DNA of 64,000 bases from an uncultured Actinomycetes bacterium (lineage in GTDB: Bacteria > Actinomycetota > UBA4738 > HRBIN12), in contig CAVPIB010000001.1 in NCBI GenBank assembly GCA_963704885.1, positions 544,001 through 608,000 on the forward strand, given 5' to 3'. The first letter of the stretch is position 1. Each line of letters opens with the position of its first letter. Positions 32,535-39,360 of the stretch are shown here, one piece after another. The notes beneath the pieces are model-generated. The model was not told the DNA's origin and searched no databases. It worked only from the letters and a program-made list of their open reading frames with translations. A program made the position numbers and the translations under genes.

Positions 32535-33452
32535 ATGCTGGGGCTCGGCTACGACGGAGACCTCTTCATCCTGGCGTTCGACCACCGGGGATCGTTCGTC
32601 AAGAAGTTCTTCGGGATCGAAGGAACGCCCACGCCCGAGGAGACTCGACGTATCGCCGACGCCAAGACCGTCATCTTCGAGGGCTTCCTAAGGTCGGTGG
32701 AGCGTCTCGGCGTCCTGAAGATGAGCGCGGGCGTCCTGGTAGACGAGCAGTTCGGCGCCGCGATCGCCCAACGAGCCCGACAGCAGGAGTTCATCCTGGC
32801 GATGCCCGCGGAGAAGTCCGGCCAAGACGAGTTCGACTTCGAGTACGGGGAGGAGTTCGGAGAGCACATCCAGTTCAACGAGCCTACGTTCACGAAGGTC
32901 CTGGTCCGGTTCAACCCCGAGGGCGACGGTGCGTTGAACGCCCGGCAGGCTGCCAAGCTCAAGACCCTCTCCGAGTGGCTCCACCACTCTGAACGCAAGT
33001 TCCTCTTCGAGCTGCTGGTCCCTGCGGAGCCGCATCAGCTGGAAACGGTCGAGGGGGATGTCGGACGGTTCGACACCGAGCTCCGCCCGCACCTGATGCG
33101 ATTGGCCATCGCGCAGCTGCAGGCGTCGGGGATCGAGCCCGACATATGGAAGATCGAGGGCATCGACTCGCGCGAGGATTGCGAGGCCATAGCGCAACAA
33201 TGTCGGATCGCGGGGCGCGACCACGTGGCGTGCGTGGTCCTCGGCCGGGGCGCGGACGCCGACGCGGTAGATAACTGGCTCCGTACGGCTAGCGGGGTGC
33301 CGGGATATCAGGGGTTCGCGATCGGGCGTTCGATCTGGTGGGATCCGCTGAAGACGTTCGTCGACGGCTCGATGGCGCGAGAGGCAACGCTGGTCCAGAT
33401 CGCGGAGAACTACGCGCGGTTCGTGCAGGTCTACACGGGTGAGACGAGCTGA
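32535..33452 (+). CDS. DUF2090 / 5-keto-2-deoxygluconate-6-P aldolase-like TIM-barrel protein
   Basis: ILAFDHRGS, PDIWKIEG, VLGRGAD, GFAIGRSIW. Confidence 0.75.
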   Translation: MLGLGYDGDLFILAFDHRGSFVKKFFGIEGTPTPEETRRIADAKTVIFEGFLRSVERLGVLKMSAGVLVDEQFGAAIAQRARQQEFILAMPAEKSGQDEFDFEYGEEFGEHIQFNEPTFTKVLVRFNPEGDGALNARQAAKLKTLSEWLHHSERKFLFELLVPAEPHQLETVEGDVGRFDTELRPHLMRLAIAQLQASGIEPDIWKIEGIDSREDCEAIAQQCRIAGRDHVACVVLGRGADADAVDNWLRTASGVPGYQGFAIGRSIWWDPLKTFVDGSMAREATLVQIAENYARFVQVYTGETS

Positions 33453-33679: not shown

Positions 33680-34450
33680 TCAGCCGCCGATCAGCAGGCC
33701 CCTCCTTGCCCTGATCCGGCGATCGAGCCGGACGAAGACCAGGTACTCCACCATCACGCCGATCACCACGATCACGGCGACGGTCGCGACCAGCGTCGGG
33801 GCATCGTTCTGAGAACGCGCGAGCAGCTGTCCCAGCCCGGTCGCATCGATGACCGCCGTGATCAACTCGCCCGCCATGAGTGCCTTCCACGCGAAGCCCC
33901 AGGCCTGCTGAAGTCCGCCGACGTATCCGGGCAGCGCCGCCGGGAAGATCACGCCCCGGTAGAGCTGCCAACCTTCAGCCCCCAACGTCCGCCCGGCGCG
34001 CTTCAGCACCGGCGGCACCTGTCCGAAACTCGAGATCGTGGCGAGCGTGACCGAGGGGAAGGCGCCGACGATAGCCACGAAGACCACGGCTCGTTCGGTG
34101 AGCCCGAACCACACCACCGCGAGGGGGAGCCAGGCGATGAAGGGCGTTATCTGCAAGGCGACCACGAGTGGCCGGATAGACCTGCGCGCGAACTCGTTCA
34201 GTGCCAGGCTGAACCCGAGCGCCGTCCCGATCACGATCGACACCACGAACGAGAACATCAACCGGACCAGCGTCTTCACGACGGCATCCGGGATGGTGCC
34301 GTCCGAGATCCCACTCTTCAACGCGCTCCATACCGCGGCGGGCGAGGGCACCGTCTGCGGCGATGCGAACGCCGCCACGATCGACCAGACCACCAGCAGT
34401 CCGATCACGCCGGCGAGTGGCGGCCCGACCTCGCGCGCGACCCGCCTCAC
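33680..34450 (-). CDS. Nitrate/sulfonate/taurine-type ABC permease
   Basis: EAA-like loop RAGRTLGA, IFPAALP, WKALMAGEL; GTG at 34450 overlaps ATPase stop. Confidence 0.88.
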   Translation of the reverse strand: MRRVAREVGPPLAGVIGLLVVWSIVAAFASPQTVPSPAAVWSALKSGISDGTIPDAVVKTLVRLMFSFVVSIVIGTALGFSLALNEFARRSIRPLVVALQITPFIAWLPLAVVWFGLTERAVVFVAIVGAFPSVTLATISSFGQVPPVLKRAGRTLGAEGWQLYRGVIFPAALPGYVGGLQQAWGFAWKALMAGELITAVIDATGLGQLLARSQNDAPTLVATVAVIVVIGVMVEYLVFVRLDRRIRARRGLLIGG

Positions 34451-35277
34451 GACTCGCCGCCTTTGTTGACCTCGAGCATCAGGATGTCGTGGATCTCGGA
34501 GACGACGCGAGATACGAGCGCGTCGTCCAGCTGCCGCGGCCGGGGTGCGTGGATGCGTTGTTCTTCCAAGAGCTTTCCAGGGGCGGCCGTCATGACCAGA
34601 ACTCGGTCGGCCAGCAGCGCGGCCTCCCGGACGTTGTGAGTGACGAACACGAACGTCTTGCGACCCTGGCTTTCCACCCACACGCGCTGTAGCTCGTTCT
34701 GGAGGAGCTCGCGCGCCTGTGCGTCCAGCGCGCCGAAGGGCTCGTCGCCCAAGATCACATCCGGATCGCATGCCAGTGCACGGGCCAGCGCTGTTCGCTG
34801 CCGCATCCCCGCCGAGAGCTCATGCGGCTGCGCGTCCGCGAAGTTCGTGAGATGTACGTTCTCCAGCCAGCCCATAGCGCGATCCCGCCGCTCGTCCTGA
34901 GGCACCCCGATGTGCTTGAGCGCGAACTCCACGTTGGCCACGACCGAAAGCCAGGGGAAGAGCGCGGGTTCCTGGAACAGGACGGCACGATCGGGCCCCG
35001 GTCCCACGATCGGCTCCCCGTCGAGCAGTGCCTGGCCCGACGTGGGTGCGTCCAGTCCCGCCAGGATGTTCAAGATCGTGGTCTTGCCGCAGCCCGAGGG
35101 CCCCAGCAGGCAGACGAACTCGCCCTGCAGGACGTCGAGGGTGACGTGGTCTACGGCGGTGACCGTCATGCCGGTGGTGGACGTGCGGGTCTTGACCAGA
35201 TCGCGAAGGGCGAGCTTGGGCGCCGCGGCATCCCGCGGACCGAGAGTTGCCACGGCGCCCTCGGCTCGATCGGCCAT
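34447..35277 (-). CDS. Nitrate/sulfonate-type ABC ATPase
   Basis: GPSGCGKT, FQEPALFPWL, LSAGMRQR, DEPFGALD, VTHN. Confidence 0.92.
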   Translation of the reverse strand: MADRAEGAVATLGPRDAAAPKLALRDLVKTRTSTTGMTVTAVDHVTLDVLQGEFVCLLGPSGCGKTTILNILAGLDAPTSGQALLDGEPIVGPGPDRAVLFQEPALFPWLSVVANVEFALKHIGVPQDERRDRAMGWLENVHLTNFADAQPHELSAGMRQRTALARALACDPDVILGDEPFGALDAQARELLQNELQRVWVESQGRKTFVFVTHNVREAALLADRVLVMTAAPGKLLEEQRIHAPRPRQLDDALVSRVVSEIHDILMLEVNKGGES

Positions 35278-35465
35278 CAGCGCAACCTGAACTTCTCGGC
35301 CATCTCTATCTGCACGACCTTGCCGTCCTGGATCACCAAGACGACCGTTCCGAACTTGATCTTCTGGATGATGTCGGCGACCTTGGCCAGGACCAGGCGC
35401 TCGTCGTCGGTCAATTCGGCCAGTCGTTCCTGCGTGCTCTGCTCCGGGACGGGATCGTCGGCCAC
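35277..35465 (-). CDS. YezD/DUF2292 small protein
   Basis: IQKIKFGTVVLVIQDGKVVQIEMAEKFRL signature; 62 aa. Confidence 0.85.
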   Translation of the reverse strand: MADDPVPEQSTQERLAELTDDERLVLAKVADIIQKIKFGTVVLVIQDGKVVQIEMAEKFRLR

Positions 35466-35474
35466 GATCGGATA

Positions 35475-36515
35475 CTAGGCCGCGATCGACTCGGTCACGA
35501 GGGGGGTCGCCTCCAGCGTGCGACGGGTCTTCGCGAAGTAGGCGATCGAGGCGACGAATCCCACCACGAACGGAGCTCCGATAGCCTGCCACCTGATCCA
35601 TGTCCTTCGACTGAGGCCGGCGGCTTCCCACTGGACCTCAGCATGATTCGCGGCGTCGATCGCGCCCCACAGCGGGAGTGCCACCAAGCCGACGACCAGC
35701 AAGACCACGCCGAGCATCTCCGTTGACAGGTTGAGCAACTTCAGCCCGGACGCGAGTAGGACGAGCACGAGCGCCGGGCGGATCACCCCGTCGGGTGCCT
35801 TGGAGGACATCCGTGCGCCCACGTAGACCCCTGGGATGGAGCCGACCAGGATCGAGGTGGTGAGCCCCGCCTCGAAGTCCCCGAAGAAGATGTGTGTAAG
35901 GGCGGCCGCTGCCACCAGCGGGACCGCTTGCACCAGGTCGGTTCCGACCAACTCTGCGCCCCGCATGCTGGGGTACAACAGCATCAGCGACACGATGATG
36001 ACCGAACCCGAGCCCACGGAGGTCATCCCGACGAGTAGGCCGCCGACGATGCCGATCAGGATGGTCGGGAGAGGCTTCACTTTCAGCGGAGGAGGCTGCG
36101 TGCCCGAGGAACGATGCTGCGCGTTGCGGCGCCCCTGGAGCCACGCCTTCGAGACCATCGCCACCGCGGCCATCATCAATGTGGCTCCCAGCAGCAGCTT
36201 GATCGTGTTCTGCACGTCCTCGCTGTTGCCCAAGCTCCGCAGGATGAAGACACCAGACGCGGCGGCCGGGATCGAGCCGATAGCCAGCCAAAGAACCAGT
36301 TCCCAGCGGACGGTCTTGCGCCGGATGTGCACGCCGCTGCCGACCGGCTTCATGATCATGGCGGCGACCAGGTCGCTGGACACCGCCGCGCTGGGCGGGA
36401 TCCCGAAAACCAAGACGAGGATCGGGGTCATGAGCGCCCCGCCGCCCATGCCGGTCAGCCCGACGGTGAATCCGACGAGCAGCGCGGCGAACGTGACATA
36501 GAGGTCGATGTCCAT
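35475..36515 (-). CDS. TauE/SafE sulfite exporter family protein
   Basis: GLTGMGGGALMTP, GMTSVGSGS, LVGTDLVQAVPL. Confidence 0.9.
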   Translation of the reverse strand: MDIDLYVTFAALLVGFTVGLTGMGGGALMTPILVLVFGIPPSAAVSSDLVAAMIMKPVGSGVHIRRKTVRWELVLWLAIGSIPAAASGVFILRSLGNSEDVQNTIKLLLGATLMMAAVAMVSKAWLQGRRNAQHRSSGTQPPPLKVKPLPTILIGIVGGLLVGMTSVGSGSVIIVSLMLLYPSMRGAELVGTDLVQAVPLVAAAALTHIFFGDFEAGLTTSILVGSIPGVYVGARMSSKAPDGVIRPALVLVLLASGLKLLNLSTEMLGVVLLVVGLVALPLWGAIDAANHAEVQWEAAGLSRRTWIRWQAIGAPFVVGFVASIAYFAKTRRTLEATPLVTESIAA

Positions 36516-36540
36516 CTGGTCTTCCCTGTGCTTCCCAAGG

Positions 36541-36618
36541 AACAACAAAGGCCACGGCGAAGAAAGAGGGTTCCGCCGCGGCCTCCAGTCGTCTGGTCAG
36601 CTGCTTCAGGGGATGCTA
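36541..36618 (-). promoter_or_regulatory. Leader motif copy 1: -10 box, conserved hairpin, overlapping terminator
   Basis: TAGCAT (36613-18) then GCAGCUGACCAGACGACUGG-AGGCCGCGGCGGA..UUCGCCGUGGCCU-UUGUUGUU; 28 nt (36577-36604) identical to copy 2. Confidence 0.8.
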
Positions 36619-36692
36619 GCTGCGGCGATGGGGGGCGTCAATCAGCCGGATGATGCGGGACCTTCGCCCCGGATCAATCGTCCGAACGGCGG

Positions 36693-37889
36693 CTATGCGG
36701 TGTGCGTTCCGAACAGGAGTCCCGAGAGTAGGAACGTGATCGGGAGCAGGAACAGCGTGCCGACGAAGAACGCCAAGCGACGGTTCGAGGCGACCAGGTA
36801 GTCGTCCAAGCCGAGCACCGCCGTCTTCACTGGTCGATACACGAAGGCGAGGATGATCAGGGAGACGAGCGTGACCCCGATCGCCTCTGCAAGCACGATC
36901 TGTCCTGCGATGGGGGTGTTCTGCAACATCGCCACCACCAGGGTGTCGGCGAGAGTGGTGATGTTCGCGCCCATGATGTAGGGGAGGGCCTCCTCGCGCT
37001 TCACGTAGCCCTTGGCCGCAAGCGGCACCAACACGGTGAGTGCCACAGACACAGATAGCGTGAGGAACGCCACGAGGCATCCCAGGCCGAACATGGTCCA
37101 CGGGTGCTTCAACCACTTCGCGTGGTTGGAGACCGCGGTCCCTGTGCTGAGGTTCGGCAGAACGCGATCGAGGAGGCTGAACGAGACCAAGATCACGCCG
37201 AGACCGACAAGGAACAGCGCCCAGCCAGGCAGGTTGACCGAGGCCGCGTCGACGAGTGGGCCCCAGAGCGCGCCCAACAGGGCCTCCATCTTCGCGGAGG
37301 CGTGCCAGTTCATCCCGTCCAGCAGGCCGCCGCGCAGGATCGCGTAGCCGATGAGCATGCCGGGGATGTACACGATCGCGGTCATGGTCATCGCCTGGAT
37401 GCCGATCCCGATCGACTCTCCGCGATCCCGGCTCCGGTTCCTCATGGCGTAGAGGAAGCCGGTCATCAGCACGATGAAGGACGCGCCCAGCCGCGAGCCG
37501 GAGAGCATGGTGAACGTCTGGAGCTTGGTGAGCGTGCCGGCGCCGAACAAGCTGATGGCGGTCGCGGCGACCGGCGAGCCCGACAGCACGAAGTAGGCCC
37601 CCAGCCAACCCGTGCCCAGCGTGGAGACGCCGTTCGCGAACGGGAACTGACCCTTGATCTGCGGCCCCACAGCAGTGGCGCCGGCCTTCATCAACTGGAT
37701 CGCCAGGATGAACAGGAAGATCGCCGGTAGGAACAACGCGAGCTTCTTGATGACGTACCACGCGCCGCGCTCAACGACCTCAACGGTGTGGTGGTCGACC
37801 AAGTGGTGCTCGCTCGGGTGGTGGTCGCCCAGCCCAGGAACCAGGACGAGCTCATCCGTGAGCTCGGCGCGGCTCTGAACCTCTTCCAT
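36693..37889 (-). CDS. Na+/phosphate-cotransporter-like membrane protein (anion symporter)
   Basis: LSGSPVA, GSRLGASF and PYIMGANITT repeats, many TMs; RBS GGGAGG before ATG 37889. Confidence 0.75.
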   Translation of the reverse strand: MEEVQSRAELTDELVLVPGLGDHHPSEHHLVDHHTVEVVERGAWYVIKKLALFLPAIFLFILAIQLMKAGATAVGPQIKGQFPFANGVSTLGTGWLGAYFVLSGSPVAATAISLFGAGTLTKLQTFTMLSGSRLGASFIVLMTGFLYAMRNRSRDRGESIGIGIQAMTMTAIVYIPGMLIGYAILRGGLLDGMNWHASAKMEALLGALWGPLVDAASVNLPGWALFLVGLGVILVSFSLLDRVLPNLSTGTAVSNHAKWLKHPWTMFGLGCLVAFLTLSVSVALTVLVPLAAKGYVKREEALPYIMGANITTLADTLVVAMLQNTPIAGQIVLAEAIGVTLVSLIILAFVYRPVKTAVLGLDDYLVASNRRLAFFVGTLFLLPITFLLSGLLFGTHTA

Positions 37890-37905
37890 GCGATCCTCCC
37901 TTGGC

Positions 37906-37974
37906 AACGGAAAAGGCCGCGGCGCAAGATGCGTCGCGGCCTCCAGTCGTCTGGTCAGCTGCCGGGGCACCGTA
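37906..37974 (-). promoter_or_regulatory. Leader motif copy 2: -10 box, conserved hairpin, overlapping terminator
   Basis: TGG-TACGGT (37969-74) then GCAGCUGACCAGACGACUGG-AGGCCGCGACGCA-UCU-UGCGCCGCGGCCU-UUUCCGUU; 37935-37962 identical to copy 1. Confidence 0.8.
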
Positions 37975-38085
37975 CCAACCGGTCTTCCGAAGCGTCAAGG
38001 ACCGAAGGGCTAGCTTCGGCTCCCGCCGTTCGGCCTATCCCACACCGGCCGTGCGGTCAATGCGGTCCTCTAGACTGTGGGCGCC

Positions 38086-39360
38086 ATGCCGGCCTCGATC
38101 GTGCTCGGGACGCAGTGGGGGGACGAGGGCAAGGGCAAGGCGGTCGACTACCTGGCGGATCGGATGGACTTCGTGGTCCGCTATCAAGGCGGCAACAACG
38201 CGGGCCACACCGTGATCGCCGAGGGACGGCTGCTGAAGCTCCAGCTGATCCCCTCGGGCATCCTCTACGACCACATCACGTCGGTGATCGCCGACGGGGT
38301 GGTGGTGGACCCGCGCCACCTGATCAAAGAGATGGCGTCGCTCCGCGAGCTGGGCATCGACGTCTCCCGGCTGGTCGTGTCCGGCAACGCTCACATGATC
38401 ATGCCGTACCACTTGGAGTTGGAGAAGGTGACAGAGCGGTTCCTGGGCAAGAACGCGCTCGGCACCACCAAGCGAGGGATCGGCCCGGCCTATGGCGACA
38501 AGGCCGCGCGCATCGGCCTGCGCATCCAGGACCTGTTCGACGCGAAGATCTTCCGCGAGAAGCTCGACGTGGTCCTGCGGGAGAAGAACCTGATCCTCAC
38601 GAAGATCTACAACCGATTGCCGCTCGACGCCGACCTGATCGTCGAGGAGTACATGGAACTGGCATCGCAGCTGGAGCCGCACGTCGCCGACACCGGGGCG
38701 CTCCTGCATCACGGCTTGCGCGACGGCAAGCACGTGATGCTCGAGGGCGCGCAGGGCACCCTGCTCGACCTGGATCACGGGACGTATCCGTTCGTGACGT
38801 CGTCGAACCCCGTTGCCGGCTACGCCCTCGCGTCCGCGGGCATCGGTCCACTCGAGGTGGACCGAGTGATCGGGATCGTGAAGGCCTATGTCACCCGCGT
38901 GGGCGCTGGGCCGTTCCCGACCGAGGACCTCGGCGTCGTGGGCGAGCGGTTGGGTGTGAGAGGAAAGGAGTTCGGGACCGTCACCGGCCGCAAGCGCCGG
39001 TGCGGCTGGTTCGACGCTGTGCTGGCACGCTACGCGGCTCGGCTGAACGGCCTGACCGAGCAGTTCGTGACCAAGCTCGACGTGCTCTCGGGATTCGAGA
39101 AGGTGAAGATCTGCACCGGGTACCGAGCCGACGGCGAACTCTATGAGGACTTCCCGCCGCACCAATCCCTATTCCACAAGGCCGAGCCCGTGTTCGAGGA
39201 GCTCGACGGGTGGATGGAGGAGATCGACGAAGCGAAGACGTTCGAAGACCTGCCTAAACAGGCGCGCGCGTATGTGCAGCGCATGGCCGAACTGGTGAGC
39301 GTCCCGGTGTCGGTCGTTTCGATCGGACCCGCGCGCGAGCAGAGCTTGCCGGTCGGATGA
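38086..39360 (+). CDS. purA: Adenylosuccinate synthetase
   Basis: QWGDEGKGK, GGNNAGHT, EGAQG, GTVTGRKRRCGW. Confidence 0.98.
   Translation: MPASIVLGTQWGDEGKGKAVDYLADRMDFVVRYQGGNNAGHTVIAEGRLLKLQLIPSGILYDHITSVIADGVVVDPRHLIKEMASLRELGIDVSRLVVSGNAHMIMPYHLELEKVTERFLGKNALGTTKRGIGPAYGDKAARIGLRIQDLFDAKIFREKLDVVLREKNLILTKIYNRLPLDADLIVEEYMELASQLEPHVADTGALLHHGLRDGKHVMLEGAQGTLLDLDHGTYPFVTSSNPVAGYALASAGIGPLEVDRVIGIVKAYVTRVGAGPFPTEDLGVVGERLGVRGKEFGTVTGRKRRCGWFDAVLARYAARLNGLTEQFVTKLDVLSGFEKVKICTGYRADGELYEDFPPHQSLFHKAEPVFEELDGWMEEIDEAKTFEDLPKQARAYVQRMAELVSVPVSVVSIGPAREQSLPVG

Follow-up and report, generated by a model that had tools for sequence, protein, structure and literature searches.

We establish here a conserved cis-regulatory RNA switch for sulfur-acquisition genes, represented by two leader copies in a 64,000-nucleotide (nt) stretch of DNA from an uncultured member of the Actinomycetota (hereafter the window; all coordinates are positions of this whole stretch). 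The copies precede, on the minus strand, a gene for a Na/Pi-cotransporter-like membrane protein and a tauE-yezD-ABC (ATP-binding cassette) gene set that encodes a 62-amino-acid (aa) protein of the DUF2292 (YezD/OscA) family. The element is a small hairpin that competes with structures blocking expression, it recurs ahead of sulfur genes, and it is syntenic with DUF2292 genes. As to its operation, we favor a switch that is turned on by sulfur limitation, and give roughly even chances to its being set by binding of YezD to the leader RNA, the likeliest of the mechanisms considered.

How bacteria control sulfur assimilation has been worked out well in a few model species (CysB, CymR, S-adenosylmethionine (SAM) and T-box leaders), whereas next to nothing is known about it for the uncultured soil Actinomycetota in which this element occurs. 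YezD/OscA recurs in sulfur-starvation and chromate-stress data without a mechanism. Defined here are a compact RNA switch absent from Rfam, its regulon, two ways in which it is wired to expression, and a specific candidate protein partner.

Two leader copies in the window

The motif and all genes flanking it in the window are read on the minus strand. A repeat search identified a 31-nt direct repeat of 97% identity (one mismatch) at 36574–36604 and 37932–37962, enclosing the 28 identical bases (36577–36604 and 37935–37962) to which an initial annotation, made from the sequence alone, had drawn attention. Each copy reads GCAGCUGACCAG-ACGA-CUGGAGGCC and continues into a GC-rich stem and a U-tract. 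A genome-wide search of the 3.0-Mb genome yielded these two copies and no third.

Both copies lie directly behind a putative promoter. For copy 1, a consensus scan detected a −35 box TTGACG, a 17-nt spacer and a −10 box TAGCAT (36613–36641, minus strand), scoring 9 of 12 consensus matches where one site was found against 0.3 expected; the repeat begins 8 nt past the −10 box. The promoter of copy 2 (37969–37998, minus strand) was read by eye and was not reported by the consensus scan: it comprises TTGACG (37998–37993), an 18-nt spacer and TACGGT (37974–37969), with the repeat starting 6 nt past TACGGT. The spacing of 6–8 nt from these −10 boxes is thus as initially annotated, and both copies fall at about +1, the predicted 5′ end of the transcript. 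Boxes of the form TTGAC...TA(c/g)(g/c)(g/a)T, equivalent to the copy 2 promoter, precede the motif at related loci.

Folding and covariation define the motif core at 36581–36601 in copy 1 and 37939–37959 in copy 2. Its lower stem, P1, pairs GCU (36601–36599; 37959–37957) with GGC (36583–36581; 37941–37939); an internal loop of GA (36598–36597; 37956–37955) opposite A (36584; 37942) separates it from the upper stem, P2, in which CCAG (36596–36593; 37954–37951) pairs with CUGG (36588–36585; 37946–37943) around the apical loop ACGA (36592–36589; 37950–37947). Downstream, the transcript folds into an intrinsic terminator at 36541–36584 in copy 1 (stem 36584–36549, 13 bp, U-rich tail to 36541) and at 37911–37942 in copy 2 (stem 37942–37914, 12 bp with one internal mismatch, U-tract to 37911; centroid structure). 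These 12–13 bp stems run into UUUU or UUUGUUGUU, as expected of intrinsic terminators, and folding of both leaders therefore bears out the small hairpin and U-tailed terminator described initially. A simple terminator scan listed neither of them because their stems or loops exceed its limits. The order in each leader is small hairpin, terminator, then Shine–Dalgarno (SD) sequence and start codon.

In both window copies the 3′ strand of P1 forms the first bases of the terminator. The terminator fold is favored by 6.6–7.5 kcal/mol, at −28.6 versus −22.0 kcal/mol with P1 and P2 forced in copy 1 and −27.0 versus −19.5 kcal/mol in copy 2, and forcing P1 and P2 strips the bottom pairs beside the U-tract.

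Distribution of the element

A 22-mer of the motif, searched with up to three mismatches, was present in 27 of 61 related genomes, against one match for the reversed control. Every related locus found in this way carried a TTGAC/TAnnnT promoter upstream and a terminator downstream beginning with the last bases of the motif. A covariance model of motif plus terminator (R1, built from alignment A1) matched 76 of 151 genomes of the uncultured Actinomycetota order, which is represented by metagenome-assembled genomes, at E ≤ 1e-3, with up to 8 copies per genome; among the high-quality genomes of the order the count was 54/92. A draw at class level, which held only families of the same order, gave 70/151 at E ≤ 1e-5. 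In a draw across the phylum, 6 of 151 genomes had an R1 match, all six inside the order, leaving 0/140 outside it. Altogether 93 unique strong sites were collected, and the motif always lies on the sense strand of the downstream gene.

The genome tallies for the 22-mer, R1 and DUF2292 include G008, G059, G080, G110, G185, G041, G160 and G099. A1 and R1 hold one row each from G059 (locus L003) and G008 (L014), and the folding and gene counts of the variant class described below also took in L003; the 66-core alignment, the 121-core pool and the folding of 215 contexts left out L003, L014, L048 and L182. No conclusion rests on any of the eight genomes named.

Conserved structure and covariation

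The consensus is a hairpin of ~25 nt with a P1 of 3–5 bp, an asymmetric internal loop (GA on the 5′ side, A on the 3′ side), a 4-bp P2 (C-N-R-G with C-Y-N-G) topped by a free loop. The unpaired positions that never vary are G and A on the 5′ side and A on the 3′ side, and the C-G pairs next to them are invariant too. Across the 93 strong sites the flanks GCUGACC/GGAGGCC are near-fixed and the third P2 pair is A-U or G-C, whereas the loop varies in both sequence and length. The ACGA loop shared by the two window copies is consequently not a conserved feature.

A variant class reads CCUUU-CGGUU-GA-CCGG-ACCA-CCGG-A-GACCG (also GGCCG or GAUCG at its end), with a 5-bp P1 in which both strands are spelled differently. 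It was first seen in genomes with DUF2292 and no R1 match, by a loose pattern that made no demand on P1 pairing.

In 66 non-redundant cores with 4-nt loops (alignment A4), 92.8% of the P1 and P2 cells are paired, a percentage inflated by the descriptor, which demanded canonical pairing at the three inner P1 and two middle P2 pairs; the variety of pair types, the pairing of outer P1 positions and the control counts do not depend on this demand. Double-sided changes affect 67 cells, compared with 15.2 ± 8.9 in shuffled alignments (0 of 500 reach 67), and the covariation score is 0.363 versus 0.176, with all slid controls at or below 0.121. A pool of 121 unique cores from all lineages, for which reversed-sequence controls gave 7 matches, shows the same pattern by position: P1.4 is CG in 92, UA in 14, UG in 9, GC in 4 and AU in 2 cores; P1.3 is GC in 93, AU in 17 and CG in 7; P2.3 is GC in 61 and AU in 55; and P2.2 is CG in 109, UA in 5 and UG in 4, shifting from C-G to U-A in low-GC bacteria. 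The innermost P1 pair, beside the internal loop, is U.G in 93 of the 121 cores, and G.U intermediates occur in P2. The apical loop spans 4–7 nt and includes ACAA, ACCA, AAAGA and UCGA besides ACGA. P1 covaries independently of the terminator; in L152, for example, P1 has a U-A pair while the terminator retains a mismatch. The dominant U.G, the G.U intermediates and the 4–7-nt loops are why the element is read as RNA and not as a palindromic DNA operator.

Covariance-model searches against Rfam agree with the initial judgment that the element belongs to no named RNA family. The whole window at gathering threshold returned two tRNAs only, the region 36450–38100 at E ≤ 10 only chance miRNA and snoRNA rows of at most 18.7 bits, six variant loci at E ≤ 1 one chance row, and twenty distant loci at gathering threshold tRNA only.

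Some leaders hold tandem motif copies 30–50 nt apart (L004:1497–1578, L009:1497–1575, L174:1691–1767). L007 and L022 repeat part of the motif's 5′ half (GCUGACCAGAC) just upstream of the full copy.

Two expression platforms on one core

One core is joined to two platforms, either a rival terminator that uses its 3′ strand or an SD-sequestering helix that uses its 5′ strand. When 215 unique contexts were folded, 132 formed a U-tailed terminator reusing the 3′ strand of the motif, including 24 of 30 distant metagenome copies; in 42 the 3′ strand pairs downstream without a U-tail by the criterion used, in 32 the minimum free energy (MFE) structure is the motif itself, in 8 the 5′ half pairs downstream with the SD region or another segment, and one behaves otherwise. 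In the comparative alignment 96.5% of the terminator cells are paired, with three pairs changed on both sides. A conserved alternative structure thus shares nucleotides with the terminator, as in an attenuator. The mutual exclusion of lower stem and terminator initially suggested for the window is upheld more widely, P1 covarying and its 3′ strand being the terminator start in those 132 contexts.

The variant class is wired differently. Its CCUUU and the 5′ half of the motif pair with the SD region (YCGAAAGGAG), and this helix is present in the MFE structure of 15 of 29 leaders and partly in that of 2 more, typically at about −45 kcal/mol versus −34 kcal/mol with the motif forced. These folding energies suggest that the OFF structure would be the default on both platforms and that the closed motif would correspond to ON.

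Genes downstream of the motif

At the 93 strong sites, the first genes are Na/Pi-like (27), SsuA-family binding proteins with ABC genes (16), TauE (13) and DUF2292-ABC (13), and the rest are mixed. Within the order, the regulon further takes in a sulfate-binding protein together with its permease, a rhodanese of two domains, a SorA/SoxC-like sulfite dehydrogenase accompanied by a rhodanese, and an Rrf2 regulator. In the variant class, 18 of the 23 copies for which an open reading frame (ORF) could be called stand ahead of sulfate/thiosulfate-binding proteins; another 12 copies ran off the locus. At distant metagenome loci the downstream genes encode PALP-family (cysteine-synthase-like), SsuA-like, sulfate-binding, NifH-like, radical-SAM (NifB-like by eye) and JAB/MPN proteins. 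The proposal of a sulfur- or oxyanion-responsive attenuator is therefore sustained in its sulfur part, with sulfur genes downstream across genomes; the regulon is not confined to oxyanion transport, and an SD-sequestering platform exists beside the attenuator.

A tRNA-Cys(GCA) gene lies downstream in 21 of 71 distant loci scanned and is the sole tRNA type found there; among 19 distinct spacers, two are without the motif. The same-strand order yezD, motif, terminator, tRNA-Cys(GCA) was observed at L302:1353–1501, L295, L311 and 18 more loci, an arrangement that looks like a conditional terminator ahead of a tRNA-Cys gene.

In mid-GC and low-GC metagenome loci, genes of the NifH family and for radical-SAM (NifB-like) proteins occur between or after yezD and the motif, beside sulfate ABC genes (L339:1308–2168, L342:632–1507, L306:1448–2317). 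They may represent a nitrogenase-like sulfur-salvage system under the switch; we presume that the nitrogenase-like genes of the distant loci resemble the sulfur-salvage "Mar" systems. Rrf2-family genes, members of the family of CymR and IscR, are found inside or just upstream of some motif operons (L089:2877–3341, L124, L330:50–376), a possible sign of further sulfur control at the level of DNA. Behind three motif sites lies a protein of ~140 aa with a weak PRC-barrel match of 22.6 bits (L113:449–874, L118, L135).

Within the window, copy 2 is followed by the Na/Pi-cotransporter-like membrane protein (398 aa; 36693–37889, minus strand; SD GGGAGGA), for which the PF02690 score of 30.1 bits is weak against a cut-off of 29.1 and searches of NCBIfam gave no match. 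Copy 1 is followed by a TauE/SafE-family anion permease (346 aa; 35475–36515, minus strand; PF01925, 153.5 bits), then by the DUF2292/YezD/OscA-like small protein, the candidate trans-acting factor (62 aa; 35277–35465, minus strand; PF10055, 57.5 bits, cut-off 22), an ABC transporter ATPase of the nitrate/sulfonate/taurine type by Pfam (34447–35277, minus strand; best NCBIfam rows SaoA, NtrCD and taurine ATPases, all below cut-offs), and a TauC/SsuC-like ABC transporter permease by Pfam and NCBIfam (33680–34450, minus strand). Pfam thus agrees with the Na/Pi-type and tauE-yezD-ABC genes first assigned here, weakly in the Na/Pi case. Two plus-strand genes are apparently unlinked to the switch: one for adenylosuccinate synthetase (573 bits; 38077–39360), divergent from the Na/Pi-like gene, and one for a DUF2090 protein (32535–33452) beyond the ABC permease.

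Linkage between the motif and DUF2292 genes

Small DUF2292 ORFs were located by tblastn. A DUF2292 gene is adjacent at 64 of the 93 strong sites, lying downstream on the same strand at 47, immediately upstream on the same strand at 13 (50–107 nt), divergent at 3 and in another arrangement at 1. By genome, DUF2292 is present in 57 of 59 with a strong motif versus 22 of 92 others, a table that overstates the independence of its entries because the genomes are related. The two exceptions with a strong motif are G072 (68% complete) and G167 (87% complete, with the motif at the start of a 2.7-kb contig). Furthermore, 15 of 17 genomes classed as "negative or weak" did carry the motif beside DUF2292.

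Starting from the protein gave a similar result: a search centered on DUF2292 found the motif within 1.5 kb at 66 of 80 loci, always upstream or divergent, with no control matches. The rest of the phylum seldom has DUF2292 (2/140 genomes outside the order), and in both of these genomes a re-paired variant of the motif comes right after the gene. Among distant metagenome DUF2292 loci (n = 80, median GC 40%), 37 contain the motif (38 matches, 0 in the control), and 35 of the 38 matches sit directly after DUF2292, often overlapping its stop codon. The co-occurrence of the motif with DUF2292 and sulfur genes, proposed as a check in the initial annotation, was thus seen across several phyla.

Many low-GC loci use the UGA within the motif's conserved CUGAC as the stop codon of yezD (L302:1340–1360, L307:1318–1335); a terminating ribosome would then sit on the sensor hairpin. 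The two yezD genes of the outgroup (family f9) share a near-identical promoter region, TTGACACTCCTATA(A/G)CACTCCTG...GAGTGT (L185:1330–1390, L186:1370–1420), whose ACACTC/GAGTGT inverted repeat may be the operator of a separate regulator.

The DUF2292 protein

The 62-aa ORF of the window belongs to DUF2292/YezD, exceeding the gathering cut-off of PF10055. Against the OscA equivalog model NF033785 it scores 33.8 bits, below the 85-bit cut-off, and is accordingly a relative within the same superfamily. At E ≤ 1e-3 the family counted 294 representative clusters. Of the 150 representatives listed, about 40 (among them P0167, P0169 and P0186) have lengths of 104–149 aa and two or three matched stretches, which correspond to tandem domains.

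An AlphaFold2 model (pLDDT, the predicted local distance difference test, 84) consists of two helices, the first short and the second long, followed by a beta-hairpin. Prediction of a homodimer scored 0.43, versus 0.00 for the best of three controls, with an interface between beta1 and beta1′; at least 85% of contacts are shared between runs, and the partner pLDDT is at least 68. In calibration, 20 of 30 proteins whose structures were solved as pairs of one chain attained this mark, as did 1 of 23 solved as single chains. These predictions support, short of proof, the formation of a YezD dimer and have no bearing on RNA binding.

Published data on the family point to sulfur. In Bacillus subtilis, yezD is repressed by CymR and Spx, according to the part of PMC3479203 that deals with it. 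In Pseudomonas, oscA forms one unit with sbp and is induced on chromate exposure, and its loss causes Cr(VI) sensitivity, as summarized in passages of PMC2996968 and PMC3596284, both citing Viti 2009; the same passages, as citing papers, link the chromate induction to sulfate starvation. The function of OscA is given as not known in the relevant passages of PMC2996968, PMC3596284, PMC10433965 and PMC12892942.

Proposed mechanism and the case for YezD

We propose that each copy acts as a cis-acting leader-RNA switch in which the ~25-nt hairpin would be the sensor. In the window, the 3′ strand of P1 (GGC) doubles as the bottom of a strong terminator and, through this sharing, RNA polymerase would stop by default before the Na/Pi-like gene and before tauE-yezD-ABC. 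Were the full hairpin held shut, the terminator base next to the U-tract could not form, and read-through would result. The holding factor is most likely a dimer of the 62-aa DUF2292 protein, which would serve as an RNA-binding antiterminator or, at the SD-sequestering variants, as a translation activator. Hairpin closure would take place under sulfur or cysteine limitation.

The initial annotation had already nominated YezD as an RNA-binding antiterminator, and the tight synteny of DUF2292 in regulator-like positions across phyla is consistent with such a role at the level of gene order. YezD is favored because its gene adjoins the RNA in positions where the RNA cannot regulate yezD, because the order yezD, site and terminator, genes is that of known antiterminator proteins (HutP and BglG), and because the motif is almost never found without the protein while the RNA is very small for a metabolite pocket. 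Extended to the whole family, the proposal is that YezD/OscA proteins are a new family of small dimeric, signal-gated RNA-binding regulators of a ~25-nt hairpin, from Actinomycetota to low-GC gut bacteria, which would switch on the sulfur-starvation response by antitermination or a freed ribosome-binding site and, in some lineages, by read-through into tRNA-Cys; we hold this broad version with a confidence that falls a little below even.

A number of observations weigh against YezD as the factor or against the proposed direction. Contact between YezD and the RNA is a proposal drawn from synteny. The predicted fold is not a recognizable RNA-binding fold, Foldseek found no significant neighbor among solved structures (best E 1.4), and a PDB sequence search with YezD returned chance rows only (E ≥ 0.17). 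Residues Q52, E57 and K58 are invariant and D47, E54 and R60 near-invariant, so that several of the conserved residues are acidic, as is the N-terminal tail. At 29 of the 93 sites no DUF2292 gene lies within 300 nt upstream or 6 kb downstream, and where yezD lies downstream of the terminator it could be merely a regulated gene. Conversely, G005 and G142 have DUF2292 and no motif within 1.5 kb of it, 43 of the 80 distant DUF2292 loci are without the motif by the descriptor used, and one very low-GC group has a standalone yezD with no visible motif; the pairing of DUF2292 and motif is consequently frequent and not universal. The relatedness of the genomes and the pairing demanded by the descriptor, both mentioned above, count on the same side, the ON direction is a thermodynamic prediction only, and the sharing of one core by two platforms speaks for the first of the alternatives below.

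Alternative explanations

The most serious rival is a metabolite or ion riboswitch, in which the internal loop would bind O-acetylserine, N-acetylserine or a metal-held sulfur oxyanion and DUF2292 would be just the most strongly conserved of the regulated or co-located genes, like crcB or DUF1646 for their riboswitches. It has to be taken seriously because one conserved core with at least two unrelated expression platforms is a classic signature of metabolite riboswitches. The tandem copies in the leaders L004, L009 and L174, the unvarying unpaired G, A and A set between equally invariant C-G pairs, the 29 sites without adjacent DUF2292 and the 47 of 93 sites with yezD inside the regulated operon fit it as well, and the orphan sulfur-linked candidate sul1 motif is a precedent for such RNAs, as described in part of PMC5737381. 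However, an element of ~25 nt with three conserved unpaired bases and a free loop offers little for a selective pocket, adjacency to DUF2292 is kept where the motif cannot regulate that gene (13 upstream sites, 3 divergent sites, both outgroup genomes and 35 of 38 distant matches), and, of the 59 genomes with a strong motif, only two (G072 and G167) lack DUF2292. Overall, we regard direct ligand sensing as unlikely, while giving it substantial weight.

The switch might also be set by another trans-acting factor, such as an Rrf2-linked protein, a small RNA or uncharged tRNA-Cys, with YezD having a separate role in sulfur uptake. Rrf2 genes in or next to motif operons (L089, L124, L330), tRNA-Cys as the sole tRNA beside the element (21 of 71 loci) and the lack of a recognizable RNA-binding fold in YezD lend this some appeal. 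Yet none of these candidates follows the motif with the closeness and breadth of DUF2292, the Actinomycetota copies have no tRNA nearby, and the core offers no obvious pairing site for an anticodon or small RNA because its apical loop varies. Such a factor appears improbable to us.

A repressor-binding DNA operator across the transcription start, with covariation that would reflect a palindromic site, is very improbable: although the element lies at about +1 to +25 of the promoter in the window and in many relatives and its CCAG/CUGG arms form a DNA palindrome, the dominant U.G innermost P1 pair (93/121) and the G.U intermediates of P2 would be asymmetric in DNA, the arm spacing ranges from 4 to 7 nt, the flanks are asymmetric, a sense-strand terminator or anti-SD is fused to the element in every case, and copies in distant lineages occupy the 3′ end of yezD, remote from promoters. 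A terminator-associated or mobile repeat with no sensing role, as which a short, GC-rich, repeated sequence always near terminators might pass, is hardly credible given 1–8 copies per genome that all occupy 5′ leaders or intergenic positions ahead of sulfur genes, a structure kept by compensatory change across phyla, and a second, terminator-free platform.

Comparison with known regulatory systems

In the BglG/SacY/LicT systems, a dimeric protein stabilizes a ribonucleic antiterminator (RAT) hairpin and thereby brings about read-through. The present element resembles these hairpins in its small size, its imperfect pairing and the overlap of its 3′ part with the 5′ arm of a terminator; the regulator gene, here the candidate yezD, also often lies in or beside the controlled operon. 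It is nonetheless distinct from BglG/LicT-RAT: the RNA-binding domain CAT_RBD (PF03123) has 0 matches in the window genome (G000, 97% complete), while the control search was positive in 4 of 14 genomes; Pfam links DUF2292 to neither the CAT nor the PRD domain; and the motif consensus is different and shorter, with sulfur as the signal in place of sugar transport by the phosphotransferase system (PTS).

The B. subtilis HutP/hut system offers a likeness in gene order, namely regulator gene, RNA site with terminator, and structural genes, as at the distant loci and the 13 upstream sites; HutP is likewise a small protein activated by a metabolite, as is proposed for YezD. As a hexamer, HutP recognizes spaced UAG triplets and destabilizes the terminator, whereas the conserved unit here is a hairpin with an internal loop, and the two proteins are related neither in sequence nor in fold.

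Among RNAs, sul1 is a curated Rfam family. It was introduced as an orphan riboswitch candidate in 5′ untranslated regions of sulfate-transporter and other sulfur or methionine genes, its ligand not known (Weinberg et al. 2017, PMC5737381), and so shares with the present element the position ahead of sulfur genes. No Rfam model matched any copy, lineage and structure differ, and no DUF2292 link is reported for sul1 in the portion of PMC5737381 concerned with it. The HMP-PP (hydroxymethylpyrimidine pyrophosphate; thiS motif) riboswitch is a terminator-embedded aptamer validated as a direct sensor of a thiamin precursor and, as presented in part of PMC6478431, is likewise a very small sensor sharing sequence with a terminator stem; its motif is unrelated, and a protein partner is suspected for the element described here.

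Guanidine-II (mini-ykkC) RNAs have conserved ACGR tetraloops on two hairpins, and the window copies carry an ACGA tetraloop on a short GC stem. This reading was rejected because loop sequence and length are not conserved; the conserved part is the internal loop, Rfam gave no match, and the genes are unrelated to guanidine. The ykkC subtype 2d, which controls TauE genes according to part of PMC7266159, has a different, large fold, and again no Rfam match was obtained. ANTAR leaders are formed by two tandem hairpins with hexaloops that have A at position 1 and G at position 4; the single hairpin with its 4–7-nt loop does not fit this rule, and the search for PF03861 (ANTAR), with 0 matches in G000, was uninformative as the control was also 0 of 14 genomes.

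For the OscA/YezD family itself the likeness is one of membership, since the window ORF falls in PF10055 and OscA/YezD genes are located beside sbp and sulfate ABC genes, are chromate-induced and belong to the CymR regulon. The relevant portions of PMC2996968, PMC3596284 and PMC3479203 give neither a molecular function nor an RNA element. For bacilli, part of PMC2965389 mentions an attenuator, not named there, ahead of a sulfonate ABC operon. The RNA element was not described in the literature searched, a search that did not extend to supplementary tables (the alignment of PMC2965389 and the motif tables of PMC5737381), which might bear on priority.

Implications

If YezD acts as proposed, the finding would provide a function for a protein that is unexplained in the Bacillus CymR and Pseudomonas sulfate-starvation regulons, and a protein–RNA pair would join CysB, CymR, the S-box and the T-box in bacterial sulfur sensing. 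With an RNA of ~25 nt and a protein of ~60 aa, it would constitute a very small natural antitermination module, and the element would serve as a metagenome marker of sulfur limitation. The link to tRNA-Cys would furthermore represent an unusual case of a conditional terminator ahead of a tRNA gene.

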